In this document: piece by piece, positions 18,942 to 39,386 of the stretch | Layout: every line of letters starts with the position of its first letter | Position numbering within the stretch: the stretch's first letter is position 1 | Source of the DNA: Clostridium sp. CAG:567 | Lineage (GTDB): Bacteria; Bacillota; Clostridia; TANB77; CAG-508 | Length of the DNA: 64,000 nt | NCBI GenBank assembly: GCA_000437855.1 | Contig: FR902169.1 | Coordinates: 4,810 to 68,809, forward strand | Reading direction: 5' to 3' | Notes under the pieces: model-generated | Told to the model about the DNA's origin: nothing | Seen by the model: the letters and a program-made list of their open reading frames with translations, nothing else | Databases searched by the model: none | Translations under genes and position numbers: made by a program

Positions 18942-18989
18942 TTTTTAAAGTTTTATAGATACAATATTAATAAAAGTTATTATTATTTC

Positions 18990-19452: not shown

Positions 19453-19557
19453 CCTATTCATTCCTCCTTTTTGTTAAGTATAATATATTGGGTTATAGTT
19501 GTCAAATGTAACACGAATAATTCAATAATTTCATAACAAAATATGAATATTCTAAAT

Positions 19558-20865: not shown

Positions 20866-20877
20866 TAAAATCACCTC

Positions 20878-21198: not shown

Positions 21199-21227
21199 AA
21201 TTTTATTTGCTCCTTTCAAAATTCTTT

Positions 21228-21361
21228 ATGGGGTTTGGGGAAAGAATTTCCCCATCAATTCATTTTTTCAAAAAATGACAAGCTGTATTTATACGGGAGT
21301 ATAAATGCGTCGCTTGCTTTAAATATTTCATTTGCCGATATGTGCCAATTTCTAACCCCAT
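21228..21361. other. Candidate oriT of the IME
   Basis: Immediately upstream of mobC. Hairpins GGGGAAA-gaa-TTTCCCC (21237-21253) and atttatac-ggga-gtataaat (21287-21306), bracketed by ATGGGGTT (21228) / AACCCCAT (21354). Confidence 0.4.
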
Positions 21362-21444
21362 TTTTAAAAAAATTGGTACAAAAAAAGAAGAAATCTCATT
21401 TGAAATCTCTTCTAAAAAGTATTTTTATTGCTACTAAATGTGAT

Positions 21445-21759
21445 TTATTTTTCTTTGATAACGCCTGTATCTTTTAAGTAAAAATACATCTCTTTACCAC
21501 CTAAAAGGAATATTTCCTTTTCCTCAAAATCACAAATTTCCATATAAATTTTAGCTAGTTTTTGGAACATTTTACATTCAGTTTCATTTAATATCATTTC
21601 TCTATCTTCTAGTATTAATTGTAAATTTGGATATTTATTCATAATATCATTGAATTTTTCCCTTAATTCTTTATATTCTTCATTTCTATTTATTAAATCA
21701 GTTTTTCTTTCTTCAATAGCCTCATTTAAATACATTTCATATAATCTTACTTCATCCAT
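21445..21759 (-). CDS. Hypothetical protein
   Basis: 104-aa acidic, helical ORF in the IME backbone operon. No motif recognised. Confidence 0.45.
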   Translation of the reverse strand: MDEVRLYEMYLNEAIEERKTDLINRNEEYKELREKFNDIMNKYPNLQLILEDREMILNETECKMFQKLAKIYMEICDFEEKEIFLLGGKEMYFYLKDTGVIKEK

Positions 21760-21770
21760 TTTGGTACCTC

Positions 21771-22166
21771 CTATACATAAATTAATTCACTTAATACAAT
21801 TTCTTCAACGCGATTTTTAATTGAATTCATCCTGCAAACCCATTCCATTTGATTAGTTTCTTTTAGTTTTTCAGTTACATTTTCTTGTTTTACTAACTGA
21901 GATATAATTGTTTTAATTCTATCTTCACAAGCAATATCTATCTCGTGTAAATATCTATTTAATTTGCCATCCATAAATAAAACGATATATTCGGCTTTTT
22001 TATGATTTTTTAAATAATTCAATTTCATTCTGCCATATTTTCCAATTGTATAATTTGTTTCTTCTGGATCTAATACTAAATTAGGCAAGTAATAATCTCC
22101 TTGTTTTATATATTCAATTCCTGTTTTTTCATCTACAAATCTATTTTTTACATTTTTATTTTCCAT
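21771..22166 (-). CDS. tnpV: TnpV-family transposon-encoded protein
   Basis: GDYYLPNL...IGKYGRMKLNYLKNH...VTEKLKETNQMEWVCRMNSIKNRVEEIVLSELIY follows the TnpV family pattern. ATG 22166 follows AAGGAGG. Confidence 0.7.
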   Translation of the reverse strand: MENKNVKNRFVDEKTGIEYIKQGDYYLPNLVLDPEETNYTIGKYGRMKLNYLKNHKKAEYIVLFMDGKLNRYLHEIDIACEDRIKTIISQLVKQENVTEKLKETNQMEWVCRMNSIKNRVEEIVLSELIYV

Positions 22167-22179
22167 TTTCAAATCCTCC

Positions 22180-22854
22180 TTAATCATTATTTTCTATCAA
22201 ATCGTTTAAATTGGTAATTCCGTTTGATTTTTTATAATTTTCAACGCTATCATTGGGTAAATTATAATTAACATATAGCTTGTCTAAATATCCAGGTGGA
22301 TAAACTCTGCCTTGATAACCACTTTTTTTACTCTGATAGCTTTTATAATTATTATTTATATATTTATTATTATTGCTATTATGGACTGTCGATTTTCTAC
22401 ACTCAGGAGTGTTGATTTCATGCTCTCCTGACTGCTGATTTTCGACACTCCTTAATTTATCTATTTTTTCACTTTCTATCATTCCTATGGTTTTGCCTAA
22501 ATAAATAATATTTGGCATATTTTTGCCTTGCTTTTTCTCTTTTATAAGATTACATTCTTTTAATTGTGCTATTGCACTATCAAGTGCAGCACGTTTTATA
22601 TGCATTTTTTCTTGTATTTCTTCTCTCTTAAAAATTACATACATATCGCCTTTTGCATCATAGAATTGTATTTTTTTGTTACTTTCTATTTGTTTGAATG
22701 ATAATTCCAACCTATCGGTTAAAATAGAATATAGTAACATAGCATTAGGTGATAGAACTTTATATTCTTCTCTATTTAATAATTCTCTTGGAAATTGTAT
22801 AAAACTTTCAAATGAAAGTTTATCTGTTTTCTTGAATGGGGCGAATTCATACAT
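22180..22854 (-). CDS. Replication initiator A (RepA_N) family protein
   Basis: N-terminal FIQFPRELLNREEYKVLSPNAMLLYSILTDRLELS is the RepA_N signature. Confidence 0.75.
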   Translation of the reverse strand: MYEFAPFKKTDKLSFESFIQFPRELLNREEYKVLSPNAMLLYSILTDRLELSFKQIESNKKIQFYDAKGDMYVIFKREEIQEKMHIKRAALDSAIAQLKECNLIKEKKQGKNMPNIIYLGKTIGMIESEKIDKLRSVENQQSGEHEINTPECRKSTVHNSNNNKYINNNYKSYQSKKSGYQGRVYPPGYLDKLYVNYNLPNDSVENYKKSNGITNLNDLIENND

Positions 22855-22890
22855 TATAGACCTCCTTTCATCTAACTTAAATCTAAATTG

Positions 22891-23010
22891 TTCTAGAAAA
22901 GTTCTAGAAAATAATCTTAAAACACTTGATATGACTGAATTTTATTCTTCGATAAATTTTATTTTTGAAATTTTTTATTTAGATTTCTGTTCTAGAAAAT
23001 TTTTCTAGAA
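22891..23010. repeat. Four TTCTAGAA palindromes upstream of repA, next to the right att
   Basis: ttctagaa at 22891, 22902, 22990 and 23003, arranged as two pairs with 11- and 13-bp spacing. Confidence 0.6.
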
Positions 23011-23147
23011 CAAAATTTGATGATGTAGAAGGTTTTTAAAAGACTTTAGACAGAAAAAATACGTTATTCCAATTTCTTGAAATAACGTATTTTATGCACT
23101 TTTGATATAATTTTCGTCCTTCTGTAGTTTTCTACAGAATTTACATT

Positions 23148-23163
23148 TTATGGTCGAGGCGAC
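23148..23163. repeat. att repeat (right), within the tRNA-Pro 3' end
   Basis: TTATGGTCGAGGCGAC, identical to 12851-12866. Confidence 0.85.
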
Positions 23164-23226
23164 AGGGATCGAACCTGCGACCTCATGGTCCCAAACCACG
23201 CGCGCTACCAACTGCGCTACGCCTCG
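23151..23226 (-). tRNA. tRNA-Pro (anticodon TGG)
   Basis: Minus strand reads CGAGGCG-TA-GCGC...anticodon loop TTTGGGA...TTCGATC...CGCCTCG-A-CCA. Full cloverleaf folded by hand. Confidence 0.9.
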
Positions 23227-23448: not shown

Positions 23449-23859
23449 TTATAATTTAATCTCAATAATCTCTTCAATTTGAACTTCTTCCCCATTTTCT
23501 AGTATAATTTTTCTATCATATTCATCTATTTTTACTACATTTTCTGTTACTTCAATATATTTTCCGCCATCTTTTTTAACATCTGGTATAAAATATGTAA
23601 CTGTAATTTTTGGCCTATTATGTATTTTTTCTTTTATTAAAAGCAATTTTTTATTTAAAATTGTCTTTTGTTCTTCATTTATTTCTATTCTACTATTAGT
23701 TTCCCTGGCTGTTTCTTTTATTACATCATCATATCCAGTTAATGCTGAAAAAGGTGCAAATTGTGCAGATCTTTCTTCTATTGTCATTCTTACATGTTTT
23801 TCAGATACATGATGTGGTAAATTTATTATATCGTTATATTTATCACTTTTTTCTAACAC
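23449..23859 (-). CDS. YolD-like protein (accessory to Y-family polymerase)
   Basis: DIINLPHHVSEKHVRMTIEERSAQFAPFSALTGY is the YolD-like signature. GTG start 4 nt after the polymerase stop. Confidence 0.75.
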   Translation of the reverse strand: MLEKSDKYNDIINLPHHVSEKHVRMTIEERSAQFAPFSALTGYDDVIKETARETNSRIEINEEQKTILNKKLLLIKEKIHNRPKITVTYFIPDVKKDGGKYIEVTENVVKIDEYDRKIILENGEEVQIEEIIEIKL

Positions 23860-23862
23860 CTT

Positions 23863-25362
23863 TTATTCTTTATGACCTCCTATTTGCTTATTTCTTTCAA
23901 TAGTTGTGCCCTCTTTTTGCAAATTCATTCCTTTTATTATAGCATTTTTTCCATATTTGTTTTTTATATTAATCATTGCTTTTTGTATTTCTTTTTCTGC
24001 TTCTTCTTTTTCTCTTTTTTTATTGACTTCTTTATAGTCTACAAATAAATTAATTTGCTCATAATTGCTATTTTGCACCATATTTTCATTTACCACATTA
24101 TTAACTGTAATATTGATTCTTCTTACTAAAAGTTGTTTATTAATAATTTGTTCATATAATTTTATTATATGTTCTGTAAGAACTTTGCTAGAAGATGTTT
24201 GATGGTCTATATTTATTGTTCCATGTGCATGTTTTGGTACTTTTCTTCCATATTTATCAGTTGTTATTTCTCCGTTATATTTGCTACTAATTGCTTGATT
24301 TTTCAAGTTATCTACATCATACCCAATTTCTAATACAATTTGATTTGCAACTAGCCCTTTTTCTACTAGATCTAGTGCAAGTAGTTCAGTCATTTCCTTT
24401 ACAATTAGTTTTGTATTTTCGTAATTGTATGGACAATGTAAAACTTGTCCAGAGCATATACTATTTGTAGCTGGTCTATATGCCTTAATACTCTCAATTG
24501 TTACATTTTCCCATCCCCAAGCATGGTCAATTAGTAGCTCTGCATTTACGCCAAATAATTTATATAGTAGTTCTTCATTTTTAACTGACATTTTAGCTAC
24601 ATCACCCATTGTGTACATTCCATGCTCTTCTAGTCTTTTTGAATAGCCTTTACCAACTCTCCAAAAATCTGTTAAAGGTCTGTGGCTCCAAAGTAATTTT
24701 CTATATGCCATTTCATCAAGACCAGCTATTCTTACACCATTGTTATCTGGTTTTGCATGCTTTGCTACAATGTCCATTGCTATTTTGCAAAGATATAAAT
24801 TAGTTCCAATTCCTGCGGTTGCTGTTATTCCTGTTGTTTTATAAACATCTTGCATTACTTTTGTTACTAACTCTTTTGCTCCCATATTATATGTTTTTAG
24901 GTAATGTGTAACATCTATAAATACCTCATCTATTGAATATACATATATATCATCAGATGAAAAATATTTTAAATATATATTATAAATTTTTGAACTGTAT
25001 TTCATATAATAAGCCATTCTTGGTGGTGCTATTATATAACTTAATTCTAAATTTTTATTTTTCTTTAATTCAATATCACTATATGATGATCCTGTAAATG
25101 TTCTATTTGTTGCCTTTCTTTTTCTGTATACATTTATCTCTTTTACTTTTTGAACAACTTCAAAAAGCCTTGCTCTACCTGGTATTCCATAGGATTTTAG
25201 TGCTGGGCTTACAGCAAGGCAAATTGTTTTTTCTGTTCTACTACTATCAGCAACTACTAAGTTTGTAGTAATTGGGTCTAGTCCTCTTTCTTTACATTCA
25301 ACAGAGGCATAAAAGCTTTTTAAATCTATTGCTACATATATTTTACTTTCTTCATTATGCAT
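23863..25362 (-). CDS. Y-family (UmuC/DinB-like) translesion DNA polymerase
   Basis: N-terminal AIDLKSFYASVE plus SIDEVFIDVT catalytic acidic motifs. 499 aa. Confidence 0.9.
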   Translation of the reverse strand: MHNEESKIYVAIDLKSFYASVECKERGLDPITTNLVVADSSRTEKTICLAVSPALKSYGIPGRARLFEVVQKVKEINVYRKRKATNRTFTGSSYSDIELKKNKNLELSYIIAPPRMAYYMKYSSKIYNIYLKYFSSDDIYVYSIDEVFIDVTHYLKTYNMGAKELVTKVMQDVYKTTGITATAGIGTNLYLCKIAMDIVAKHAKPDNNGVRIAGLDEMAYRKLLWSHRPLTDFWRVGKGYSKRLEEHGMYTMGDVAKMSVKNEELLYKLFGVNAELLIDHAWGWENVTIESIKAYRPATNSICSGQVLHCPYNYENTKLIVKEMTELLALDLVEKGLVANQIVLEIGYDVDNLKNQAISSKYNGEITTDKYGRKVPKHAHGTINIDHQTSSSKVLTEHIIKLYEQIINKQLLVRRINITVNNVVNENMVQNSNYEQINLFVDYKEVNKKREKEEAEKEIQKAMINIKNKYGKNAIIKGMNLQKEGTTIERNKQIGGHKE

Positions 25363-25436
25363 AGCAATCTTCCTTTCATCACTCTGTTTTATTATATCAA
25401 CTTATTTGCGTTTTGTAAACGCTTGTTTGTAAGTAA

Positions 25437-25664
25437 TTATTGTAAATTTTTAATACTTGGTGCATATATTGATTTTCCATCAATTGCATAAGACATTGAT
25501 TGATATATTTTTAAAAAGTAATAACCTGGTGCATTTATAATTGGGTAATGTTTTGCAATTACTACATTTTTTGCTGTAATAACATTTCCTTTTTCTGTTG
25601 TTACTTCATAATAGCCACCTTTTTCTTTTAAATCTATAACTTTTGTGTGTTCATATGCCATTGG
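25437..25664 (-). pseudogene. Internal fragment of an FAD-dependent oxidoreductase (remnant)
   Basis: ~70 codons (..YEVTTEKGNVITAKNVVIAKHYP..YFLKIYQSMSYAI..) resemble the middle of DAO-type flavoproteins. No N- or C-terminal parts are present. The track ORF's 'start' lies inside the adjacent inverted repeat. Confidence 0.35.
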
Positions 25665-25758
25665 GTGCCATTGGGGACGGAGAATTTTGGCACACATAAT
25701 AATATTTTACATCTTTTTAATTTAAAAATGTGCCAAAATTCTCCGTCCCCAATGGCAC
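25665..25758. repeat. Perfect 30-bp inverted repeat with 34-nt spacer (MITE-like or giant hairpin)
   Basis: gtgccattggggacggagaattttggcaca (25665-25694) is the exact reverse complement of 25729-25758. It starts 2 nt after the htrA-like stop. Confidence 0.9.
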
Positions 25759-25759
25759 A

Positions 25760-26896
25760 TTATTTTTTCGATAGTTTAACTGTAATGTTACTTTCTCTTT
25801 TATTACGTAAAACCTTAAATATAACCTCATCTCCAGGCTTTTTAGTATAAATGTAACTTCTCAAATCACACATTTTCTCAAGTGCGATTCCATCAACTTC
25901 CAATAATATATCTTTTTCTTTTATTCCATACATTTCTGCAGATGATTTGTTATTAACTTGTACCACATAAATTCCGTCATCAATTTCCAAATTATTATCT
26001 AAATAAGGTATTATATTTTTATCATAAGCAAATACACCCAAGTATGCTTCTTCAAACTCTCCTGATGTTACAAAACTTTGAATAATTGTTTTTACTATAT
26101 TTATTGGAATTGCAAACCCTATACCTTCTGCAGATGTAATTTTTACACTATTTATTCCTATAACTTCTCCACTTTCGTTTACAAGTGGTCCTCCACTATT
26201 TCCGGGGTTTATTGTAGCATCTGTTTGTATTAAATTTTCCATATATGAAGATTTTTCGTCTTCATTTAAAATTATTGTTCTATTTGTTGCACTTACAATT
26301 CCAGATGTTACAGTTCTTTGAAATTCAAACCCAATTGGATTTCCAATTGCATATACAATTTGTCCTAATTTCACATCAGATGAATTTCCTAAAGTTATAT
26401 ATTGCAAGTTTTTTGCATTTATTTTTACAATTGCCAAATCTAAATCTGTGCTTGACCATACAACATTTCCCTGATAACTTTTTCCTGTTGCAAGTGTTAC
26501 ATAACAATTACTATATTTTTCCCCTGAAACATGCTCATTTGTTAATATATAGCCATTTTCAGAAACTATAATTCCTGTTCCTAATCCCAATTTTGATGTT
26601 CCATCTTTTAAAAATATTGAATTTCCTGTGCTTTTTAATTTGGAAATTCCAACTACACTTTCAGTAACTCTCTCAAGCATTTGTGTAATAGTTTCATTTT
26701 CTTTTTTAGTTTTTTCAACAGTTTGCGATATTTTACTTGCCTCATAAGGTTTAATTATTTGTGTTGGTGTTTCAATATTAAAATACAAAATGTATGTAAG
26801 TGCCATAAGTATAGTTATTAAAATAATTATAAAAGTTGTTATAAAGTATTTTTTTACCCTATCTTTTCTTTGCTTTCTTCTTATATATTCTTCCAT
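25760..26896 (-). CDS. htrA: HtrA/DegP-family serine protease with PDZ domain
   Basis: N-terminal TM anchor, TNEHV (His), DLAIV (Asp), GNSGGPL (Ser), C-terminal PDZ. Confidence 0.9.
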   Translation of the reverse strand: MEEYIRRKQRKDRVKKYFITTFIIILITILMALTYILYFNIETPTQIIKPYEASKISQTVEKTKKENETITQMLERVTESVVGISKLKSTGNSIFLKDGTSKLGLGTGIIVSENGYILTNEHVSGEKYSNCYVTLATGKSYQGNVVWSSTDLDLAIVKINAKNLQYITLGNSSDVKLGQIVYAIGNPIGFEFQRTVTSGIVSATNRTIILNEDEKSSYMENLIQTDATINPGNSGGPLVNESGEVIGINSVKITSAEGIGFAIPINIVKTIIQSFVTSGEFEEAYLGVFAYDKNIIPYLDNNLEIDDGIYVVQVNNKSSAEMYGIKEKDILLEVDGIALEKMCDLRSYIYTKKPGDEVIFKVLRNKRESNITVKLSKK

Positions 26897-27068: not shown

Positions 27069-30000
27069 ATGGAGAAAAATTTATATAATTTAACCAACCC
27101 ACAAAAGTCAATTTGGCTTATGGATCAAGTAAATCCTGGCACAAATTTAAATAACATTGGTGGACCTGTTTTAATTAATGATTCTGTCAATGTTCCATTA
27201 TTGGAAAAAGCTTTAAATTTATATATAGAAAAAAATGAAGCTACTCGTTTACGTATAAAACTAGTAGACTCTTCACCTATGCAATATGTAGCAGATTATT
27301 CTTATTTTACAATTCCTGTTACAAAGCTAAAAAATGAAAAAGAATTAGAAGATTGGAATCAAAAAATAATTGATACTCCATTTAATGTTTTTGACTCTAA
27401 TTTATATTCACTTAGCATTTTTGTATTACCAGATGGACGTGGTGGTTTTAATGCAACATTACATCACCTTATTACAGACGCTTGGAGTATGAGCCTTTTA
27501 ATTACTGAAGTAATGAGTAATTATTCAAATCTTATTCATAATAATTCTGTAGATTATGTTTTCCCTAATTATACAGATTTTATTGACGCTGAAAATAATT
27601 ATATAAATAGTGAGAAATTCCCAAAAGATAGATTATTCTGGGACGAATATTTTGAAAATTGCCCAGAATTATGCTCAATTTCATCAAACAATATTAATTC
27701 AAATATGATTGCTAAGAGAAAAAGCTATATTTTAAATTCAGATTTATTTGCAAAAATAAATGATTTTTGCAAGTTATTAAATTGCTCTGTTTACACATTT
27801 TTTATGTCTATTTATTCTATCTATTTGTCTAAACTAACCAATATATCAGAGCCTATTATAGGTACACCAGTATTAAATAGAACAAATTTCAAAGAAAAAC
27901 ATACAAGTGGTATGTTTATTAGCACTGTGCCTTTTAAAGCAAAAGTTGATAGTAATATTACTTTTTCTGAATTTGTAAAATCTGTAGCAATTACTCAATT
28001 AGCTATATTTAGGCATCAAAAATACCCTTATTCACATCTATTAGAAGATTTGAAAAAGAAATATAATTTTTCAGAAAATTTATATGATATTGCCCTTTCT
28101 TATCAAAATGCTAGAGACAATAAAGAAAATTGTGATATAGATTATTCTTCTGGATGGCTATTTTCAGGAAAATGTACAGACACATTACAAGTACATTTTT
28201 ATGATATGGATAATACAGGTGATTTAAATATTTTTTATGATTATCAACTAGATAAATTAAGTGATGAAGAAATTAATACTTTGCACGAAAGAATAATGAA
28301 TATAGTTAATCAAGTTCTTTTAAATAATGAAATTGAAATAAAAAATATTGAAATAGTAACTGAAAATGAAAAAGAATTCTTCATTAGTCAGTTTAATAAC
28401 AATATTTTAGATTATTCTAAAGAAAAAAGCATTATAGAATTATTTGATGAGCAAGTTAAACTACATCCTAACGCAATTGCAGTTTCTGATGATAAAAATT
28501 CTATTTCATATATTGAGTTACAAAAGCGTATAAATAGCCTATCTTATGAATTACAAAAACAAGGAGTAAAAAAAGGTGATGTTGTTTCTACATTTTTAAA
28601 ACGTTCTCCTGAGTTAATAATTTCTCTACTTGCAATTATGAAAATAGGTGGAATTTACTTACCAATTTCTACTTCTCTACCAGAAGAAAGAGTTGAATAT
28701 ATTTTAAATGACAGTAATTCGCGTTGTTGCATTACAGCATCTAATTGCTCTTACTTAAAAAACGTAATTTTTATAGATAAAATAAATAATCAAAATTCAC
28801 AACTAACTCCTGTAACTTATTTGCCAGATGATGTTATTTACACTATTTACACTTCTGGTTCTACAGGAAATCCAAAAGGTGTTCAAGTTACAAACAAAAA
28901 TTTAAATAACTTTGTTTGTTCTTTTAACAAGTATTTTGATCATAAAGTATCAACACAAGATATTTGTTTGGCTAGTACAAATATATCTTTTGATGTTAGT
29001 ATTTGGGAAATTTTCTTCACATTACTAAATGGAGCTCAATTATATTTATATGATGAAGATAATATTTCAGATATTTTCCATTACTGTGATGTTATTTTAA
29101 AACATAATGTTACTATGTTATATATACCACCTAATATTTTGGAAAATGTATATTCAATTTTACATGAATCTAATAATGTTAAAATTGATAAGATTTTAGT
29201 TGGAGTTGAGCCAATAAAAAATTCTACTATTCAAAAGTTCTTCAGTTTAAATGAAAATATGCAAATAGTTAATGGGTATGGCCCTACTGAAACAACTATA
29301 TGTTGTACTGCTTTTAAAGTAGCTAAAAAAGAAGCAAATGACAATTCTATTATTCCTATTGGAAAGCCTTTATATAACTTAACTGCATATGTATTAAATA
29401 AGGACCTAAACATTGTGCCTGAGGGTATTGCTGGAGAGCTATTTATTGGTGGTGATAATGTTACAAAAGGTTATTTAAATAATGAGACTTTAACTAATGA
29501 AAAATATATTCAATCTCCTTTTAAAGCTGATGAAAGATTATACAGAACTGGTGATTTAGTAAAATTCTTACCTGATGGTAACTTGTTATTTGTTGGTAGA
29601 GATGACAAACAAGTTAAAGTAAGAGGTCATCGTATTGAAATAAATGAAATTGAAAATACTATTTCAATGTACCCTAATATTCAAAAATGTATTATTAATT
29701 TAAGAAATAATAACCAAGTTATTGTTGCATTTATTGTGGCTAGCACTAATATTTCAACTAAAGATTTAAAGCAATTTTTATTAACAAAATTGCCTGCTTA
29801 TAGTGTGCCAAATTTTATTATTCAATTAGATAGTTTTCCAACAACTGCAAATGGAAAAATTGATAAAAAGCAATTAAATAATATTGAAATTAATTTTTCT
29901 ATGAATTATGTTGCTCCACAAAATGAGTTGCAACAACAATTAGTTGATATTTGGAGTGAAATATTACAAGTTAATAATATTGGTATTGAAGACAGCTTTT

Positions 30001-33000
30001 TTGAAATTGGTGGTGACTCTTTATCATCAATAAGATTGGTATCTGAAATTTATAATAAATTTGGTATAAAGTTAACTGTAAATAATATTTTTGAAAATGA
30101 CACAATTGAAGACCTTGCAGTTTATATGCAAGCTCAAAATGCCTCATTAGTTGAAAATATTGAAAAAGCAAAAATATCAGATTCATACCCTTTGACTTCA
30201 GCTCAAAAAGGTATTTACTATGCTGTTAGCTTAGAAGAAAATCCTTCTATTACCTATAATACTCCTGGTGGAATTTTCTTAACAGGAAATTTAAATATTA
30301 AAAAACTTGAAGATTGTATTAATACATTAATTAAAAAACATGTAGCACTTAGAACATATTTTACTATGCAAAATAATGAACTTGTCCAAAAAATAGATGA
30401 CAATATTAATTTTAGTTTAAAAATAGAAAATGGAAATATTAATGATGTTGACACTATTTTTGCTAAATTTGTTCAGCCTTTTGATTTAAGCAAGGCTCCA
30501 CTTTTTAGAATAAAATTAATTGAATTTGATAAAACACATTATTTGTTGTTGGTAGATTTCCACCATATTATTTGTGATGGTACTTCTATTGGAATTTTTA
30601 CAGCAGAATTAGTAAATTTATATAATGGAAATTCAATTAAAGAAAATAACTTTGATTATATTGATTATGCTATTTTTGAAAATAAACTAAAATCTTCTGA
30701 AAAATATAATCAAATGAAACAATTTTGGAAGTCAAAATTTGATGGGGAACTTCCTGTATTAAATATGCCTACAAATTTTGCAAGGCCAGCTAATCGCTCT
30801 TTTGAAGGTGATGAAGTATTATTAAATATTACAAATGCAGATGAAATATACACATTGTGTAAAAGTCTACACACCACACCATACTTTTTCTTATTATCTG
30901 TTTACTATATTCTTCTTAGTAAATATACTAGTCAAGAAGATATTATTGTAGGAACTGCTGTTGCTGGAAGAGATGATGCAAATTTTGCAAATATTTTAGG
31001 TATGTTTGTAAATACGTTGGCATTACGTGAAAAAATTGATTCTAACTTATCTTTTAATGAGTTTTTAAATATAGTAACTCAAACTGGACTTGCATGTTTA
31101 GAAAATCAAACTTATCCATTTGATGAGTTAGTAAAAGAATTAAATTTAAATAGAAATACAAACCGAGCTCCTTTATTTGATACAATGTTTGTATATCAAA
31201 ATGAAGAAAGTGCTTTAATAGACTTTTCAGGTGTTGAAACAAAACTTTATACCCCATGTTCTAAAGTTTCAAAATTTGATTTTTCATTAGATCTAACGCC
31301 AAAATCTAATGTTATATCAGCTCGTTTAGAATATGCTACAAGTCTATTTACAAAAGATTTTATGACTCAATTTTTAAATCATTATATAAGTTTAATAAAA
31401 TTAATTTTAAATGATATTCATGTTACTATTAAAGAAATTAGTTTATTAAATAAAGATGAAAAATTAGAAATTGAAAAAACATATAACAGCTCTATTTTAC
31501 CTTATGATGAAAATGTTAAATTAGTTGAATTATTTGAAAATGAAGCAGAAAAAAATCCAAATAATATTGCTATTCGTTTCAATGGTTCTTCTATTACATA
31601 TGAAGAATTAAATAAAAAGGCAAATCAAATAGCAAACTTTTTAATTAGTAAAAATGTAAAAAGAAATCAAATTGTAGGAATTCTTCTTCCTCGTACACCA
31701 GACTTGCTATTTGCTATGTTAGGTATATTAAAATCTGGTGCTGGTTATATGTTAATTGATACAAGTTTGCCATATGATCGTATTAGTTTTATGCTAGAAA
31801 ATGCTCATTCAAACTATTTAATAACTAATAAAGACTCAAAAAATATTGATGGTGTTGAAAAACTTTATTTAGATGAATTGCCTCTAGAAAATTATAGTGC
31901 ACAAAATGTAAATGCCTATAGTGATAATGAAGACAGTTTTGCAGTTATTTATACATCTGGCTCTACTGGCACTCCAAAAGGTGTAGAGTTAAAACGAAAA
32001 GGTGTTATAAATATGCTAAGTAATTATAAAGCTTTTCTTTATACTGATACTTGTACAAACTTTTTAAGTATGAGTAGTGTAGCATTTGATATGTTTATTG
32101 TAGAAAACTTTGTGCCATTACTTTCTGGTAAAACTGTAATATTAACAAATGAAGAAGAACAAAAAATACCATTATATACAAACACATTAATAGAGCAAGA
32201 ACATGTAAACTTTATTTTAACTACTCCTTCTAGAATGGACTTATTACTTTCTGTAGGTTCAAATTGGAATACTATAAAAGTTATACAATTAGGTGGAGAA
32301 GTTTTTCCTTCAAATTTATATGATAAAATAAAAGCTCAAACTTCTAATGCTCATATATTTAATGGTTATGGTCCTTCTGAAATTACTGCTTGTTGTACAA
32401 GTAAAGAAGTTTACAATTCTAATGATATAACTATTGGTAAGCCATTTGCTAATACACAATTGTGGATTTGTAATAAAGATTTAAACATATGCCCTATTGG
32501 TGTTGAAGGTGAAATTTGTGTTGCAGGTCTTGGAGTTGGTAAAGGTTATATTAATAACCCTGATTTAACTAATAAAAGTTTTGTACCAAATCCTTTTGGA
32601 GATGGAATTATGTACAAAACTGGTGACATTGGAAAATACAAATCTAATGGTGATATTGAGTTTATTGGCAGAAGAGATTCACAAATTAAAATACGTGGCC
32701 TTAGGGTTGAATTATCTGAAATTGAAAATCAGTTTTTGAAAATACCTGAAATAACTAATATTTGTATAATTTATAAAAAAGAAACTGTACCTTATTTAGC
32801 TGCATTTTTCACATCATCTGGTGAGATTGAAACATCAGTAATAAGAAAGCAGTTGTCTGAAACCTTACCATTATATATGGTGCCAAAATATATTATAAAA
32901 TTAGACAAGCTTCCAATTACTTTAAATGGTAAAATAGATAAAAAACAATTAGAAAATTATTCTATAAGCCAAGTTGAAACTAGAACCTATGTTGCACCTA

Positions 33001-34463
33001 GAAATGAGACTGAAAAACTATGTTGTAACATATGGGAAAGCCTTTTAAACTGTCAAATTGGTATTGATGATGATATATTTGAAATGGGTGCTGACTCTTT
33101 ACTTGCAATTAAATTCAAAACAGAATTATTAGCTTATAATATTAATATTACATATTCTGATATTTTTAAATATCATACAGTTAGAGAGCTTGTAAGCACA
33201 CATGGCGAATATGATATTGAATTATTAGATAACAAAGATTTTGTTGAATGCCATAATGCATTAGAAAAAAATGTTGCATCTAATTTTGCTACATCTCTTT
33301 CTAACTTACAGTCTTCAAGTTATAACAATATTTTACTATTAGGAGCTAATGGATTTGTTGGTAGCCATATTTTATATAGTTTTATTAAAAATGATACTGG
33401 TAATGCTTATTGCATTGTTCGTGACAAAGACAGAAAAGAAGGAAAAACTAGATTTTTAGAAACATTACATTTCTACTTTGGAAATGAATTAGACCATTAT
33501 TTAAATAATAGAATTTTTGTTATTAATTCTAGTATTTTAGATGAAAACTTTGGTATGAGTGAAAAAGATTATTTAGAATTGCTTAATAGCATTGATGTTA
33601 TTATTAATTCAGCTGCAATTGTAAAACACTATGGTAATGAGGAAAAATTTAAAAAAATAAATGTTGGTTTAACAGAAAAACTTATTGATATATGTACAAA
33701 GTTCAATAAAAGATTACTTCATGTCTCTTCTTTAAGTGTATCTGGAAATTTATCTTTAGATGGTAGTTATGCAGATAGAATACATGAAGTTACTGAGAAT
33801 ATGAATTTTTCTGAGCATAATTTATATATTGGTCAAATTCTAGATAATGAATATATTAAAAGTAAATTTTTATCTGAAAAATTGATATTAGAAAATATAA
33901 GTAAAAATGGTTTGCAAGCACAAATTTTACGTTTAGGCAACATTACTAATAGATATTCAGATGGTGCTTTTCAAATAAATTACCAAGAAAATGCATTTTT
34001 GGAACGTATGCTTACATTTATAGAGCTTGGTTATGTTCCAAATAATCTATTGGATATGTATATTGAATTCACACCAGTTGATGTTTGTGGTAATGCAATA
34101 ATAAAAATTTTACAAAACTATGTACCTGATTTTTCAGTATATCATTTATATAATGATAATCATGTGTATATGAATGAATTTTTGAAAATTCTTCAAGAAG
34201 AAAATATTAATATTGTTTCTGTTTCTCCTGAGGAGTTTGGTAAAAAAATTACAGACTTGTCAAAAAATGCAAAAAGTGCTAATATACTTTCTGGAATTAT
34301 AAATGATTTAGGACCAGATAAACAATTAGAGTATAAATCTAATATTAATATTCTTTCAGATTTTACTAAAGCATTTTTATACCATATTAATTTTAAATGG
34401 CCTAAAATCGATGAATCATATTTGAAAAAATATATTAACTATTTAAGAAAATATTTAGCCTAA
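27069..34463 (+). CDS. Bimodular non-ribosomal peptide synthetase, C-A-T-C-A-T-R (terminal thioester reductase)
   Basis: C1 HHLITDA (aa 132-138). A1 YTSGSTGNPKG (aa 594-604) ... NGKIDKKQL. T1 GGDS (Ser984, nt 30018-30020). C2 HHIICDG (aa 1165-1171). A2 YTSGSTGTPKG ... NGKIDKKQL. T2 GADS (Ser2010, nt 33096-33098). R domain GANGFVG (aa 2092-2098) and Y2262-x3-K2266. Confidence 0.95.
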   Translation: MEKNLYNLTNPQKSIWLMDQVNPGTNLNNIGGPVLINDSVNVPLLEKALNLYIEKNEATRLRIKLVDSSPMQYVADYSYFTIPVTKLKNEKELEDWNQKIIDTPFNVFDSNLYSLSIFVLPDGRGGFNATLHHLITDAWSMSLLITEVMSNYSNLIHNNSVDYVFPNYTDFIDAENNYINSEKFPKDRLFWDEYFENCPELCSISSNNINSNMIAKRKSYILNSDLFAKINDFCKLLNCSVYTFFMSIYSIYLSKLTNISEPIIGTPVLNRTNFKEKHTSGMFISTVPFKAKVDSNITFSEFVKSVAITQLAIFRHQKYPYSHLLEDLKKKYNFSENLYDIALSYQNARDNKENCDIDYSSGWLFSGKCTDTLQVHFYDMDNTGDLNIFYDYQLDKLSDEEINTLHERIMNIVNQVLLNNEIEIKNIEIVTENEKEFFISQFNNNILDYSKEKSIIELFDEQVKLHPNAIAVSDDKNSISYIELQKRINSLSYELQKQGVKKGDVVSTFLKRSPELIISLLAIMKIGGIYLPISTSLPEERVEYILNDSNSRCCITASNCSYLKNVIFIDKINNQNSQLTPVTYLPDDVIYTIYTSGSTGNPKGVQVTNKNLNNFVCSFNKYFDHKVSTQDICLASTNISFDVSIWEIFFTLLNGAQLYLYDEDNISDIFHYCDVILKHNVTMLYIPPNILENVYSILHESNNVKIDKILVGVEPIKNSTIQKFFSLNENMQIVNGYGPTETTICCTAFKVAKKEANDNSIIPIGKPLYNLTAYVLNKDLNIVPEGIAGELFIGGDNVTKGYLNNETLTNEKYIQSPFKADERLYRTGDLVKFLPDGNLLFVGRDDKQVKVRGHRIEINEIENTISMYPNIQKCIINLRNNNQVIVAFIVASTNISTKDLKQFLLTKLPAYSVPNFIIQLDSFPTTANGKIDKKQLNNIEINFSMNYVAPQNELQQQLVDIWSEILQVNNIGIEDSFFEIGGDSLSSIRLVSEIYNKFGIKLTVNNIFENDTIEDLAVYMQAQNASLVENIEKAKISDSYPLTSAQKGIYYAVSLEENPSITYNTPGGIFLTGNLNIKKLEDCINTLIKKHVALRTYFTMQNNELVQKIDDNINFSLKIENGNINDVDTIFAKFVQPFDLSKAPLFRIKLIEFDKTHYLLLVDFHHIICDGTSIGIFTAELVNLYNGNSIKENNFDYIDYAIFENKLKSSEKYNQMKQFWKSKFDGELPVLNMPTNFARPANRSFEGDEVLLNITNADEIYTLCKSLHTTPYFFLLSVYYILLSKYTSQEDIIVGTAVAGRDDANFANILGMFVNTLALREKIDSNLSFNEFLNIVTQTGLACLENQTYPFDELVKELNLNRNTNRAPLFDTMFVYQNEESALIDFSGVETKLYTPCSKVSKFDFSLDLTPKSNVISARLEYATSLFTKDFMTQFLNHYISLIKLILNDIHVTIKEISLLNKDEKLEIEKTYNSSILPYDENVKLVELFENEAEKNPNNIAIRFNGSSITYEELNKKANQIANFLISKNVKRNQIVGILLPRTPDLLFAMLGILKSGAGYMLIDTSLPYDRISFMLENAHSNYLITNKDSKNIDGVEKLYLDELPLENYSAQNVNAYSDNEDSFAVIYTSGSTGTPKGVELKRKGVINMLSNYKAFLYTDTCTNFLSMSSVAFDMFIVENFVPLLSGKTVILTNEEEQKIPLYTNTLIEQEHVNFILTTPSRMDLLLSVGSNWNTIKVIQLGGEVFPSNLYDKIKAQTSNAHIFNGYGPSEITACCTSKEVYNSNDITIGKPFANTQLWICNKDLNICPIGVEGEICVAGLGVGKGYINNPDLTNKSFVPNPFGDGIMYKTGDIGKYKSNGDIEFIGRRDSQIKIRGLRVELSEIENQFLKIPEITNICIIYKKETVPYLAAFFTSSGEIETSVIRKQLSETLPLYMVPKYIIKLDKLPITLNGKIDKKQLENYSISQVETRTYVAPRNETEKLCCNIWESLLNCQIGIDDDIFEMGADSLLAIKFKTELLAYNINITYSDIFKYHTVRELVSTHGEYDIELLDNKDFVECHNALEKNVASNFATSLSNLQSSSYNNILLLGANGFVGSHILYSFIKNDTGNAYCIVRDKDRKEGKTRFLETLHFYFGNELDHYLNNRIFVINSSILDENFGMSEKDYLELLNSIDVIINSAAIVKHYGNEEKFKKINVGLTEKLIDICTKFNKRLLHVSSLSVSGNLSLDGSYADRIHEVTENMNFSEHNLYIGQILDNEYIKSKFLSEKLILENISKNGLQAQILRLGNITNRYSDGAFQINYQENAFLERMLTFIELGYVPNNLLDMYIEFTPVDVCGNAIIKILQNYVPDFSVYHLYNDNHVYMNEFLKILQEENINIVSVSPEEFGKKITDLSKNAKSANILSGIINDLGPDKQLEYKSNINILSDFTKAFLYHINFKWPKIDESYLKKYINYLRKYLA

Positions 34464-34466
34464 AAG

Positions 34467-34498
34467 TTGATAGATGTATAATTATATACATCTATCAA
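34467..34498 (+). terminator. Hairpin after the NRPS gene
   Basis: Perfect 14-bp stem ttgatagatgtata/tatacatctatcaa with a 4-nt loop. The T-tract is weak. Confidence 0.5.
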
Positions 34499-34527: not shown

Positions 34528-36333
34528 ATGAAAAATTTAAACTATTTGGTTATTCTTATTATATCTGCAATAATTATGACTGTATTATTGTTAGTTATTA
34601 AAAAAACTCAAAAAACTAAAAAACAAATTTATTATTCTTTCATAACTTTAGTTGGTTTAATGTTAGTTTGGACAATTAGTTTAATTATGCAAATTCTGTG
34701 TCAAAATACATCTATTCCGCCTGTATATTTTGAATATACTGCTGCTTTTGGTGGATGTTTTTTATCTGTTGCATTTTTCTTTTTTGCATTAATTATGTCT
34801 AAAACAAAAATTAAATTTAAGCTTTGGTATTTGCTTTTATTTGTTATACCTATACTTTCATGTATTTGCTTATGGACAAATGATTTCCACCATTTATTTT
34901 ATGCAAAATACTCTATTAATTTAAATGATACTGTAAAGGGCCCATTTATAATGGTCCATTCAGTTTATACATTTGCTTTATTAATACTTGCTATATTTAT
35001 ATTATTTAAATACTCATTTAAAACATCAGGTTTCTTTTCTAAGCAATCATTATTAATTGTTTTAGGAGCTCTTATTCCTTTAGTTATTAATTTGCTTGGA
35101 ATGCTTGGTATACCTATGACAGTATATTTAACGCCTATATGTTTTGCACTTACAATTTTATTTTTTGCATTGGCTGTATTTAGGTTTGGATTAATGAAAG
35201 TAACCCCAATAGCATTGCAAACAATTGCGGATAAAATTTCAGATGGTTACTTAGTTTTGGATGAAAATGGTATTATTACAGATTTTAATGCTACAGTATT
35301 AAAAATGTTTAAGCTTGATGGGAATTACATTAGAGGAAAAAACTTATTTGATATAGTAAATACAGGAAATTATTTTTCTGTTAACACTGAAAAATTAAAA
35401 AACTGTATTGATATTGCAAAAGATACTCCTGATACATTTCATTTTGAAAAAAAATTAGTTAATGAAGACAAATATTTTAATATAGAAATTAATAGTATTC
35501 AAAATGATAAAACTTTTCTAGGAATTTTAGTATTATTTAAAGATACAACTCAACATATGCTTGATATGCAAACAATTAAAAATAATCAAAATATGCTTAT
35601 GGAAAGAGAACGTTTAGCTTCACTTGGTCAGTTAATTGGTGGTATAGCTCACAACTTAAAAACTCCTATAATGTCTATATCTGGTGCAGCTGAAGGTCTT
35701 ACAGATTTAGTTAAAGAATATGAAGCATCTGTAGGAGACCCTGAGGTTACTGTACAAGATCACCATGATATTGCAAAAGACATGAAGGATTGGATAGACA
35801 AAATACGTTCTTATACAGAATATATGTCAGATGTTATTACTGCTGTTAAAGGCCAGGCTGTTACAATGTCTGAAGAACAAGCTGTATCATTTACTTTAGA
35901 CGAATTAGTTAAACGTGTAAATATTTTAATGAAACATGAATTAAAAAATGCCTTAGTAGAGCTAAATGTTTGCATGAAAACAGATGAAAGAACTGTATTA
36001 AAAGGAAATATAAACAGTTTGGTACAAGTTATAAATAACATGGTTTCAAATGCTATACAATCATATGATGGTAAACCTGATAATAAAATTGATTTAATTT
36101 TATCAAAACAAAATAATAATGTTGTTATTTCTGTAAAAGATTATGGAAATGGCTTACCAGATGAAGTTCAAAAGAAATTATTTAAAGAAATGATAACAAC
36201 AAAAGGTAAAAATGGTACTGGACTTGGATTATTTATGTCATACTCTACTATTCGTGCTCATTTTAATGGCAATATTACTTTTGAAACAGAAAAAGGAAAA
36301 GGAACTACATTTAATGTAATCCTACCACTTTAA
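34528..36333 (+). CDS. Sensor histidine kinase with N-terminal 7TM domain and PAS domain
   Basis: ~7 TM helices, a PAS-like segment, H-box GGIAHNLKTPI, N box NMVSNAIQS, G boxes DYGNGLP / GTGLGL. Confidence 0.85.
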   Translation: MKNLNYLVILIISAIIMTVLLLVIKKTQKTKKQIYYSFITLVGLMLVWTISLIMQILCQNTSIPPVYFEYTAAFGGCFLSVAFFFFALIMSKTKIKFKLWYLLLFVIPILSCICLWTNDFHHLFYAKYSINLNDTVKGPFIMVHSVYTFALLILAIFILFKYSFKTSGFFSKQSLLIVLGALIPLVINLLGMLGIPMTVYLTPICFALTILFFALAVFRFGLMKVTPIALQTIADKISDGYLVLDENGIITDFNATVLKMFKLDGNYIRGKNLFDIVNTGNYFSVNTEKLKNCIDIAKDTPDTFHFEKKLVNEDKYFNIEINSIQNDKTFLGILVLFKDTTQHMLDMQTIKNNQNMLMERERLASLGQLIGGIAHNLKTPIMSISGAAEGLTDLVKEYEASVGDPEVTVQDHHDIAKDMKDWIDKIRSYTEYMSDVITAVKGQAVTMSEEQAVSFTLDELVKRVNILMKHELKNALVELNVCMKTDERTVLKGNINSLVQVINNMVSNAIQSYDGKPDNKIDLILSKQNNNVVISVKDYGNGLPDEVQKKLFKEMITTKGKNGTGLGLFMSYSTIRAHFNGNITFETEKGKGTTFNVILPL

Positions 36334-36472: not shown

Positions 36473-37525
36473 ATGAGAAAAAACATGCAAAGCGCAAATG
36501 ATAAAGGTTATAGAATTATAGCAGTTGATGATGAGGAAGGAATTGTTGATTCTTTATCAATTTTCTTAAAGAGATCTGGCTATGATTTTACAGGTGTTAC
36601 TGACCCAATGGAAGCAATTGAAAAGGTTAAAAATGAACATTTTGATTTAATGATTTTGGACTTTATTATGACACCTATTCATGGAGATCAGGTAGTTGAA
36701 GAAATACGTAAATTCAATAAGGAATTATATATTTTGTTACTAACTGGTCATAAAGATTTGGCTCCACCTTTGGAAACAATTAGAAAATTAGATATTCAAG
36801 GTTATTGTGAAAAAAGTGATAAATTTGATCAATTACTTCTTTTAATTGAGTCTGGAATTAAGTCAATTGAGCAAATGAATGAAATAAAAAGAATAAATGA
36901 AGAGCTTTCTTCTACTTATGAAAAACTAGAAAGAGCCTACTTAGACAGTATTCAAACTTTAAGATATACTGTTGAAGCTAAAGACCCATATACCAGAGGA
37001 CATTCAGATAGGGTTTCTAAGTATTCTGTTTTAATTGGAAAATATTTAGGATTATCTGATACTGATTTAAAAACTCTAGAAGTTGGTGGTTTATTCCATG
37101 ATATTGGAAAAATTGGTATTCCTGATAGTATTTTATTAAAGGAATCTAAATTGACAGATGATGAATATTCACAAATAAAAAACCATCCTTCAATAGGTGC
37201 TCATATTTTGTGTAATGCTGAAGTTTTTCAAGATATTATACCAATTGTAAAGCATCATCATGAAAGATTTGACGGGACTGGTTACCCTGGAAAACTAAAA
37301 GGCAACGATATTCCTTATCTTGCGAGAATAGCTGCTGTTGCAGATACTTTTGATGCTATGACATCAAGGAGAACTTATCGTGATCCTTTAAGTTTAGATG
37401 TTGTAAAAGCTGAATTTGAAAGATGCTCTGGAACACAATTTGACCCAGAAATTGCAAAAGTATTTTTAGATATTTTAAATAATCATTATGATGAAGTAAA
37501 TGAAATTCAAGAACAATTTAAATAA
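36473..37525 (+). CDS. Response regulator with HD-GYP output domain (RpfG-type, predicted c-di-GMP phosphodiesterase)
   Basis: REC domain (DLMILDFIMTP), then GLFHDIGK and HHERFDGTGYP. Confidence 0.9.
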   Translation: MRKNMQSANDKGYRIIAVDDEEGIVDSLSIFLKRSGYDFTGVTDPMEAIEKVKNEHFDLMILDFIMTPIHGDQVVEEIRKFNKELYILLLTGHKDLAPPLETIRKLDIQGYCEKSDKFDQLLLLIESGIKSIEQMNEIKRINEELSSTYEKLERAYLDSIQTLRYTVEAKDPYTRGHSDRVSKYSVLIGKYLGLSDTDLKTLEVGGLFHDIGKIGIPDSILLKESKLTDDEYSQIKNHPSIGAHILCNAEVFQDIIPIVKHHHERFDGTGYPGKLKGNDIPYLARIAAVADTFDAMTSRRTYRDPLSLDVVKAEFERCSGTQFDPEIAKVFLDILNNHYDEVNEIQEQFK

Positions 37526-37536: not shown

Positions 37537-38649
37537 ATGTTTAAAGTTTTAGTTCTATCATGTAGTACAGGTGGTGGCCATAATTCTGCTGCAAGTGCTA
37601 TAACAGAGGAATTAAGAAATAAAGGAGTTCAAGTTGATTTTAAAGAATATTTGGACTTAATAAATTATAAGATAGCTAATGTTGTAAATAAATTATATAT
37701 TAGTTCAACAAAAGGAAATGGTGCTGTTTTTAAAAGAGTTTATAAACTAGGTGAATTATATGAAAAGACAAAAATTACATCTCCGGTTTATGGTGTAAAT
37801 AAATTACATAGAAGAAAATTATATAATTATATTGTTGAAAATAAATATGATTATGTTGTAGTTACTCACCTATTCCCTGCTGAAGTTTTAACTGCTATTA
37901 AAAAACAACATGACATACATTTTATTGCAGTTGCAACAGATTATAAATCAATTCCATTTTGGCCAGAAACTAATCCAGACTATTTTATAATTCCACATAA
38001 AGATTTAATTGAAGATTTTACTAAAAAAGGTATCAGCCACGAAAAGCTAATACCTTTTGGTATTCCTGTGTCAACTAATTTTAGTAAAGATTTAGATAAA
38101 TCTAAAATATTTGCTGAATTAAATCTAGATAAAAATAAAAAATATATATTAGTTATGACAGGAAGTATGGGTTTTGGAAATGTTACAGGTATAATAGATG
38201 TTTTACAGAATGAAATTTCTGAAACAATTTTAGTTGCCTGTGGTAATAATAAAAAAGTTTATGAAGATATTTCAAATAATTATAACTCAAATAAAGTAAT
38301 TCCTATAGGTTTTACTCCACAAATTTATAAATATATGACTATAAGTGAGCTTTTATTAACTAAGCCTGGTGGTCTTACAACAACAGAAGCTGCCACAATA
38401 AATATTCCTATTATTCATACTATGCCAATACCTGGCTGTGAAACATATAATGCAGAATTTTTTGGGAGTCATGGAATGTCTATCAGCTGTAAGAATACTA
38501 ATGATATAAAAAATGCAGTAATATCTCTTTTAACTGATAAAAATAAAATGGAAAATATAATAAAAGCACAAAAACAAAATATAGATAAAAATGCTTGTAG
38601 CAAAATTTGTGAATTTATAATAGATGAAATAAGGAAATATAGTAAATGA
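37537..38649 (+). CDS. MGDG-synthase/UgtP-like (GT28) diacylglycerol glycosyltransferase
   Basis: N-terminal VLVLSCSTGGGHNSAASA and C-terminal LLTKPGGLTTTEA motifs. Confidence 0.8.
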   Translation: MFKVLVLSCSTGGGHNSAASAITEELRNKGVQVDFKEYLDLINYKIANVVNKLYISSTKGNGAVFKRVYKLGELYEKTKITSPVYGVNKLHRRKLYNYIVENKYDYVVVTHLFPAEVLTAIKKQHDIHFIAVATDYKSIPFWPETNPDYFIIPHKDLIEDFTKKGISHEKLIPFGIPVSTNFSKDLDKSKIFAELNLDKNKKYILVMTGSMGFGNVTGIIDVLQNEISETILVACGNNKKVYEDISNNYNSNKVIPIGFTPQIYKYMTISELLLTKPGGLTTTEAATINIPIIHTMPIPGCETYNAEFFGSHGMSISCKNTNDIKNAVISLLTDKNKMENIIKAQKQNIDKNACSKICEFIIDEIRKYSK

Positions 38650-39386
38650 AAGAAAATTTACAATCAAATGTAAATAATGAAAATGAAGATATAATAAAAA
38701 TGTGGGAACCACTTAAATTTGATATTGGCTTAAATTATAAATATGTAAAAAATAATATATTTTTTAAGTTAATATCAAATTTATTTTACTACATCATAGT
38801 TGCACCAATTATTTTTTTAATTTCTAACATTATTTTTGGACTAAAAATTGAAGGAAAAGAAAATTTAAAAAATATTAAGACTGGTGCTATTTCAGTATCA
38901 AACCATGTGCAATATATAGATTGTGCAATGCTTGGTCTTGCATGGTTTCCTAGAAGAATATATTACACTGCTAAAACTGATGGTTTTAAAATGCCTGTGG
39001 TTAGGCATTTAGTACGTTTGTTATATGCTATTCCTATACCAGAAAAAATTTCTTGTAAAGAAAATTTTTATAAAGCAATTGATGATTTATTAGCTAAAAA
39101 TAAAGTAGTACATTTTTACCCTGAAGCTTCTTTGTGGCCATATTACAATAAATTACGTAATTTTAAAAATGGTGCATTTAAAATTGCTTCAAAAAATAAT
39201 GTACCAATTATTCCATTTGTGTTTAGTTTTAGAAAGCCAACTGGTATTTTAAAGCTTTTTAAATCTAAACCTTGCTTAATTTTAAGTGTTCTACCACCTG
39301 TTTATCCAAAACAAAATTTAGCATTTAATGAAAGGTATTTAGATTTAAAAGAAAATGTATACAAAAAAATGAGTGAAAAAATATAA
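38646..39386 (+). CDS. Lysophospholipid/1-acylglycerol-3-phosphate acyltransferase family protein
   Basis: HX4D block SNHVQYID and FYPEAS block. The start overlaps the upstream stop (ATGA). Confidence 0.8.
   Translation: MKENLQSNVNNENEDIIKMWEPLKFDIGLNYKYVKNNIFFKLISNLFYYIIVAPIIFLISNIIFGLKIEGKENLKNIKTGAISVSNHVQYIDCAMLGLAWFPRRIYYTAKTDGFKMPVVRHLVRLLYAIPIPEKISCKENFYKAIDDLLAKNKVVHFYPEASLWPYYNKLRNFKNGAFKIASKNNVPIIPFVFSFRKPTGILKLFKSKPCLILSVLPPVYPKQNLAFNERYLDLKENVYKKMSEKI

Follow-up and report, generated by a model that had tools for sequence, protein, structure and literature searches.

What does the nonribosomal peptide synthetase (NRPS) encoded at 27069..34463 of a 64,000-nucleotide stretch of Clostridium sp. 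CAG:567 produce, and with which genes does it belong? The stretch (GenBank assembly GCA_000437855.1, contig FR902169.1, positions 4,810 to 68,809 of the forward strand) is referred to here as the window. An earlier note on this DNA, made from the letters alone, described a stand-alone bimodular enzyme with an N-terminal condensation domain and a terminal reductase, and predicted an N-acyl dipeptide aldehyde or a pyrazinone as its product. Our analysis indicates that the NRPS is very probably the CAG:567 allele of a gut-Clostridia dipeptide-aldehyde synthetase, with N-acyl-Met-Phe-aldehyde as the predicted product. Enzyme and product are both already known, and neither this enzyme nor its chemistry is new. 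The NRPS also belongs to a conserved set of linked genes that codes for a sensor kinase, a response regulator, and a protease.

The gene codes for two modules of condensation (C), adenylation (A), and carrier (T) domains followed by a thioester reductase (R). Positions are given in the window in nucleotides (nt) and in the protein in amino acids (aa).

27069..34463, plus strand: NRPS gene, ATG start, 2464 aa, domain order C-A-T-C-A-T-R
27078..28379, plus strand: C1, N-terminal condensation domain (Pfam Condensation), ~aa 4-437 with approximate boundaries, HHLITDA at aa 132-138
28443..29858, plus strand: A1, adenylation domain, aa 459-930, pocket code DVWYLGGICK, assigned to Met
29934..30119, plus strand: T1, carrier domain, aa 956-1017, GGDSL with the phosphopantetheine-accepting Ser984
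30177..31469, plus strand: C2, condensation domain from Pfam, LCL-like, aa 1037-1467, HHIICDG
31527..32960, plus strand: A2, adenylation domain, ~aa 1487-1964, pocket code DMVLQGGACK, assigned to Phe
33012..33197, plus strand: T2, carrier domain, ~aa 1982-2043 with approximate boundaries, GADSL with Ser2010
33330..34460, plus strand: terminal thioester reductase (Pfam NAD_binding_4), aa 2088-2464, with GANGFVG, a Ser in HVSSLSV (aa 2218-2224), and Y2262-x3-K2266

The NRPS is a real and intact gene. A Shine-Dalgarno-like sequence, AAAGGGGA, lies 9 nt 5' of the ATG, and the reading frame is no chance feature because it runs for 7.4 kb in DNA with a G+C content of ~26%. Pfam recovered Condensation, AMP-binding (with AMP-binding_C), and PP-binding twice each and NAD_binding_4 once (aa 2092-2344), in the order C-A-T-C-A-T-R that had been read by eye. 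The single 2464-aa open reading frame (ORF) was likewise recovered by ORF calling, and a string search located every motif quoted for it: HHLITDA (aa 132), YTSGSTGNPKG (aa 594), and GGDSL (aa 981) in module 1; HHIICDG (aa 1165), YTSGSTGTPKG (aa 1628), and GADSL (aa 2007) in module 2; and GANGFVG (aa 2092) and YIKSK (aa 2262) in the reductase. The remaining A-domain core motifs are also readable in the translation (NGYGPTE/NGYGPSE, YRTGD/YKTGD, GRxDxQ[VI]K[VI]RGxR[IV]E, and NGKIDKK).

A protein search with the NRPS returned over 100 C-A-T-C-A-T-R proteins of ~2450-2520 aa with 38-59% identity. Motifs and pocket codes were counted in a set of 91 bimodular homologues spanning the same range of identity, and the catalytic and carrier residues are kept throughout their alignment. 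A mutated carrier Ser or A-domain core motif, which the earlier note had named as a possible sign of an inactive enzyme, was not found. The gene is also nearly invariant across independent metagenomes. Four gut-metagenome contigs have 99.7-99.98% nucleotide identity to the window over 27.4 kb, the window being one more assembly from a single species-level population. When five independent gut-metagenome assemblies were compared, their copies of the NRPS gene varied by 0-12 nt. The 12 differences that separate the window from a Hadza gut metagenome-assembled genome (MAG; "uncultured Clostridia bacterium", locus L001) comprise nine synonymous and three non-synonymous codon changes.

The product assignment rests in the first place on identity to a protein with a reported product. 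By BLASTP, and again when the two strings were compared directly, 2464 of 2464 residues are identical to CDE97356.1 (BN712_00198 of Clostridium sp. CAG:567), which its record names "plipastatin synthase subunit C". This protein occurs on 137 contigs, the 90%-identity cluster that holds it has 189 members, and the gene neighbourhood of the window is the same in the contigs that carry it. Protein sequence, pocket codes and their order, and gene neighbourhood all agree, with no difference at the protein level. Table S1 of PMC12283262 lists BN712_00198, FR902169 (CDE97356), from Clostridium sp. CAG:567 as no. 179, with the product N-octanoyl-Met-Phe-H, the substrates Met-Phe, and the activity "enzyme inhibitor". 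The passage on this compound in PMC8518294, citing Guo et al. (Cell 2017), describes N-octanoyl-Met-Phe-H as the product of a Clostridium NRPS cluster, BGC0001686, expressed in E. coli, where a C12:1 analogue was co-produced. The same passage states that N-acylated dipeptide aldehydes of this type inhibit cathepsins B, L, C, and S as well as proteasomes in vitro. Product and protease inhibition are taken here from this literature, while the identity to CDE97356.1 is read directly from the sequences.

These matches support the placement of the enzyme in the gut-Clostridia dipeptide-aldehyde NRPS family of Guo et al. (2017), as the earlier note had proposed on architecture. The protein is homologous to a characterised member, is bimodular with a terminal R domain, and comes from gut Clostridia. 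The last point is based on the names of the two sources (Clostridium sp. CAG:567 and the Hadza-gut Clostridia MAG), on several related loci found on human gut metagenome contigs, and on the G+C content of ~26%. Ruminopeptin synthetase (rup) of Ruminococcus bromii (Schneider & Balskus 2018) is similar in being a gut-Clostridia NRPS for an N-acylated dipeptide aldehyde that inhibits proteases. As compared by its published description, it differs in organism and in its dipeptide, which is Leu/Glu.

The pocket codes of the two A domains agree with the reported product. All A domains of the family were aligned to GrsA-PheA with MAFFT; the GrsA-PheA sequence used gives the published code DAWTIAAICK at positions 235-517. 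The alignment exactly reproduced the codes previously read by hand, DVWYLGGICK for A1 and DMVLQGGACK for A2. These had been called unusual and unassignable to a known substrate, a description that does not hold. They are the two commonest codes among the 91 bimodular homologues, with DVWYLGGICK in 32/91 A2 and 8/91 A1 domains and DMVLQGGACK in 24/91 A1 and 21/91 A2 domains. Both are tabulated for BN712_00198 in PMC12283262, as Met(3) DVWYLGGICK in Table S6 and as Phe(27) DMVLQGGACK in Table S19. Close codes are listed in the same compendium for unrelated Met domains (ZmaQ, DVFYLGGVCK; BhcD, DVFYLGGVFK). From A1 to A2, the codes of the window run Met then Phe, which is the order of the reported product.

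The terminal domain is a thioester reductase and would release the peptide as an aldehyde. A 491-aa query covering T2-R had as its closest solved structure the NRPS peptidyl carrier protein-reductase (PCP-R) didomain 6vtj (E 1e-64, aa 1-489), followed by the AusA reductase 4f6l (E 1e-44). The Rossmann GxxGxxG motif, the Ser/Thr, and the YxxxK of the window enzyme align with both and are conserved in the family. Together with the NAD_binding_4 match and the homology to aldehyde-releasing R domains, these features identify a terminal reductase of the short-chain dehydrogenase/reductase (SDR) type, which bears out the prediction made by eye. The likeness to 6vtj and 6vtz is confined to T2-R; their depositors name the protein "non-ribosomal peptide synthetase", and we take it to be an archaeal NRPS from Methanobrevibacter ruminantium.

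Of the two condensation domains, C2 is clearly of the LCL type by sequence comparison, with 309 bits to the C domain of TycC6 (2jgp). C1 precedes the first A domain, as a starter C domain does, and has an intact HHxxxD motif, which is kept in 91/91 bimodular homologues. The final G of the motif is replaced by A or S family-wide. The HHLITDA reading is a family trait and no lesion, because C1 reads HHxxxD[A/S] across the family. That C1 acts as a starter domain for lipoinitiation is suggested by its position, by the conservation of its catalytic motif, and by the N-acylated product listed for CDE97356.1.

Taken together, these features predict the following route. A phosphopantetheinyl transferase (PPTase) encoded elsewhere would modify both carrier domains. 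A1 would load L-Met onto T1, and C1 would N-acylate it from a fatty-acyl thioester, with octanoyl and C12:1 being the chains reported for expression in E. coli. A2 would load L-Phe onto T2, C2 would form acyl-Met-Phe-S-T2, and the SDR reductase would release N-acyl-Met-Phe-H by two-electron NAD(P)H reduction. The aldehyde would then persist and inhibit cysteine and serine proteases covalently and reversibly. Three parts of this scheme are what we infer for the native host: the donor of the acyl group, its chain, and the biological role. A likely source of the acyl starter in related lineages is a stand-alone gene similar to fatty-acid-CoA ligases (564-577 aa), which lies beside the NRPS in 5/10 sampled related loci and fits lipoinitiation. 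The two copies scanned have their best match in the long-chain-fatty-acid-CoA ligase subfamily. The five genes lie between the HtrA-like protease gene described below and the NRPS gene, at these positions of their own loci:

L011, 6167-7861: ligase-like gene
L013, 5773-7506: ligase-like gene
L015, 4872-6599: ligase-like gene
L020, 5134-6849: ligase-like gene
L021, 4278-5975: ligase-like gene

Several points weigh against the assignment of N-acyl-Met-Phe-aldehyde to this gene. The chain from CDE97356 to product to BGC0001686 depends on two secondary sources, PMC12283262 and PMC8518294, and that CDE97356 is BGC0001686 we infer from the shared product name and genus. In the tables of PMC12283262 that give the codes, Met and Phe were assigned by colinearity and not by assays of separate A domains. 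C1 is nearer to the solved LCL domain of TycC6 (91 bits) than to the solved starter-C domains of RzmA (59 bits), CDA (C1, 49 bits), and SrfAA (47 bits), the matches to the starter-C domains being weak. Finally, neither a PPTase nor an acyl-activating gene was found in the 64-kb window among the scanned ORFs and, for the ligase, by tblastn.

The C1 scores bear on a different product. If C1 were inactive or unused in the native host, free Met-Phe-aldehyde would be released, cyclise, and oxidise to a (dihydro)pyrazinone, as for AusA and as reported for other members of the gut family. Many family products have been isolated as pyrazinones according to reviews, there is no acyl-activating gene or acyl carrier protein (ACP) gene beside the NRPS in the lineage of the window, and the best NCBIfam match of the NRPS is the pyrazinone synthetase AusA/PznA of Staphylococcus aureus (NF047350), which likewise has two modules and a terminal reductase for the release of a dipeptide aldehyde. 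AusA, however, lacks a C domain at its N-terminus (A-T-C-A-T-R), and the aldehyde that it releases has a free amine and cyclises to pyrazinones. The window enzyme was rejected as an AusA equivalog, since it has an extra N-terminal C domain and since the match, at 1479 bits, falls short of the 2500-bit cutoff and is limited to aa 706-2461, leaving out the N-terminal C-A region. The product tabulated for exactly this protein is N-octanoylated, and the catalytic motif of C1 is kept in every homologue of the set. Once N-acylated, the dipeptide has no free amine left with which to form an imine, so that no pyrazinone is expected from this NRPS. We therefore consider the pyrazinone, offered in the earlier note as an alternative product, to be very unlikely.

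The lack of partner genes bears on whether the N-acyl-Met-Phe-aldehyde is made at all. Pfam found no ACPS/PPTase, MbtH, or thioesterase domain in 50 selected non-overlapping neighbour ORFs of at least 86 aa, smaller ORFs lying outside the scan; a lack of all three had been noted from the letters. The fatty-acid-CoA ligase that accompanies the NRPS in relatives is missing, and a search with tblastn for a pseudogene remnant or a distant copy matched only the A domains of the NRPS. The enzyme could on these grounds be cryptic, non-productive in its host for want of an Sfp-type PPTase or an acyl-activating partner. PPTase genes, however, are often not linked to NRPS genes. No catalytic motif is missing from the intact 7.4-kb ORF, which is near-invariant across independent metagenomes, with changes that are mostly synonymous (nine against three in the Hadza MAG). 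A silent enzyme is, in our judgement, extremely improbable.

The NRPS does not stand alone, as had been supposed. The genes and features next to it that matter here are:

25760..26896, minus strand: HtrA-like membrane-anchored serine protease (Trypsin_2 and PDZ domains, transmembrane anchor), divergent from the NRPS, a frequent partner
34467..34498, plus strand: AT-rich hairpin with a 14-bp stem, weakly terminator-like by consensus match only, between the NRPS stop and the kinase start
34528..36333, plus strand: sensor histidine kinase (HK; HisKA_7TM, PAS, and HATPase_c), 64 nt 3' of the NRPS, a conserved partner
36473..37525, plus strand: response regulator (RR) with REC and HD-GYP domains, a putative cyclic di-GMP (c-di-GMP) phosphodiesterase with intact REC Asp, HD, and GYP motifs, a conserved partner

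The catalytic His, Asp, and Ser motifs of the protease are readable as NEHV, DLAIV, and GNSGGP. In relatives, the gap between NRPS and HK is only 3-12 nt. Ten orthologue groups with 36-59% NRPS identity were sampled for their neighbourhoods. The HK lies directly 3' of the NRPS in 10/10, and the RR and the HtrA-like protease lie within ~5 kb of it in 9/10. Among these loci, gene order is reshuffled in L020 and L021, and the outer flanks differ in L013, L015, L017, and L021. The reciprocal test, in which metagenome contigs were scanned with an alignment of the HKs, yielded 80 loci with 53-99% HK identity in 51 clusters (95% nucleotide identity). Wherever at least 1.6 kb of upstream sequence was available, an NRPS reductase domain lies directly 5' of the HK on the same strand (68/68 loci, 42/42 clusters). 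Where the sequence extends far enough downstream, 34/36 clusters have the RR at most 5 kb from the HK, and the HtrA-like protease was seen in 18/31 clusters with at least 9.5 kb upstream, a count limited by the 10-kb flank. The NRPS thus forms, with its HK, REC-HD-GYP RR, and HtrA-like protease, a set of linked genes that is conserved in related gut Clostridia. No description of this linkage was found in the open-access literature, a search that did not extend to the primary papers of the family.

The partners are more conserved than the enzyme. Identity of relatives to the window is 76-90% for the RR, 57-71% for the HK, 55-70% for the HtrA-like protease, and 42-57% for the NRPS. Divergence between the window and the Hadza MAG is 0-0.5% per kb over ~27-36 kb and 1.8-6% in both flanks. 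This tract, which corresponds roughly to NRPS and HK, suggests a recently exchanged unit, by recombination or by a gene-specific sweep.

Variation around the set was recorded as well. An extra 129-aa PDZ-only ORF, apparently a partial duplication, lies beside the HtrA gene in some strains (L003 8251-8640, L007 8251-8640), and in the lineage of L018 and L019 the HtrA gene is broken into two ORFs, 190 and 199 aa long. Trimodular relatives (P0004-P0021 and others; ~3510 aa, three C-A-T modules followed by R, 35-43% identity) are presumably N-acyl tripeptide aldehyde synthetases. At the one such locus inspected (L022 7001-17533), a 7TM kinase of this type follows the gene directly, and the flanks are wholly different. 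In the window, the RR gene is followed by a glycosyltransferase-acyltransferase pair (37537-39386) after an 11-nt gap, the two genes then overlapping by 4 nt, and the pair is present in all CAG:567-type contigs. This MGDG-synthase-like glycosyltransferase and PlsC-type acyltransferase were considered as tailoring or module genes and rejected, as they are not conserved beside the NRPS in relatives.

The linked set raises the question of what the aldehyde does in its producer. The NRPS might be the biosynthetic arm of a co-inherited module, in which the lipopeptide aldehyde would serve as a self-signal or as an output of a c-di-GMP circuit, with the HtrA-like protease as its target or partner, beside or instead of the inhibition of host cathepsins. 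Judged from gene content and order, we hold this to be possible and rather unlikely. In a stricter version, the chemistry is the same and the primary role would not be host-protease inhibition: the aldehyde would be a signal or controlled output of the HK and REC-HD-GYP circuit, and the HtrA-like protease would be what it targets or works with. This version appears somewhat more doubtful again. What speaks for it is the place of the HK immediately 3' of the NRPS, which holds at loci with different flanks and rearranged order and again when the search starts from the HK. The frequent RR with intact HD and GYP motifs, the stronger conservation of RR, HK, and HtrA, and the tract of near-identity over roughly NRPS and HK to a Hadza strain that is 3-5% diverged also favour it. 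Yet this support is purely genomic association, and since every lineage sampled belongs to related gut Clostridia, common descent rather than selection may account for part of the synteny. The RR has no DNA-binding output and the window has no c-di-GMP riboswitch, so feedback on NRPS transcription would be indirect; at gathering threshold, Rfam finds only tRNAs in the window and no riboswitch of this or another class near the NRPS.

A comparable gene content is known from another system. In the Rpf/DSF (diffusible signal factor) system, RpfB is an acyl-CoA ligase, RpfF the synthase, RpfC the kinase, and RpfG a REC-HD-GYP regulator. The likeness to the Rpf/DSF system of Xanthomonas is in gene content only and consists of a signal synthase, a fatty-acyl-CoA ligase (in relatives of the window), a membrane sensor kinase, and a REC-HD-GYP RR. 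The window differs in that its synthase is an NRPS and not an RpfF of the enoyl-CoA-hydratase type, and in that its kinase belongs to a different 7TM family. No RpfF-type (crotonase-fold) synthase is present among the scanned ORFs of the window.

Mobile DNA lies close to the NRPS gene in the window, with the following features:

12851-23163: integrative mobilisable element of ~10.3 kb, bounded by the exact 16-bp direct repeat TTATGGTCGAGGCGAC (12851-12866 and 23148-23163)
12995-14380: tyrosine integrase, at the left end of the element
23151-23226, minus strand: tRNA-Pro(tgg), its 3' end overlapped by the right repeat copy

The element carries genes for the tyrosine integrase, DUF6076, Fic-HTH, DUF2207, a relaxase, MobC/NikA, DUF6664, TnpV, and RepA_N. 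The NRPS was considered as its cargo and this was rejected, since the gene lies outside the repeats and the Hadza MAG (L001) has the NRPS without the element. Locus L003 has a variant of the element at the same site. The nearby relaxase and replication genes are thus no evidence for a plasmid- or element-borne NRPS.

Other features of the window were also noted. The region that separates the HtrA gene from the tRNA-Pro/tRNA-Arg pair (23449-25697) contains a Y-family DNA polymerase (23863-25362) between two small ORFs without a family match (136 aa and 86 aa); it is present in CAG:567-type contigs and L001 and not in more distant relatives. A split serine recombinase, with a Resolvase ORF at 48473-48841 and a Recombinase ORF at 47839-48405, adjoins a tRNA-Lys. 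At 55740-57664, just 5' of DnaB_2- and DnaA/IstB-like replication genes (58946-60924), lie ORFs for a TrwB-like coupling protein and a TrbC/VirB2-like pilin. The segments 47839-48841 and 55740-58561 are traces of further mobile DNA.

The NRPS family to which this enzyme belongs is prevalent in the human gut, and its products inhibit host proteases. With DVWYLGGICK and DMVLQGGACK readable as Met and Phe, the annotation of many uncharacterised members of the family is aided. The tight link of the NRPS to an HK, an HD-GYP RR, and an HtrA-like protease provides a lead on the native role and the regulation of the aldehydes that these bacteria make.

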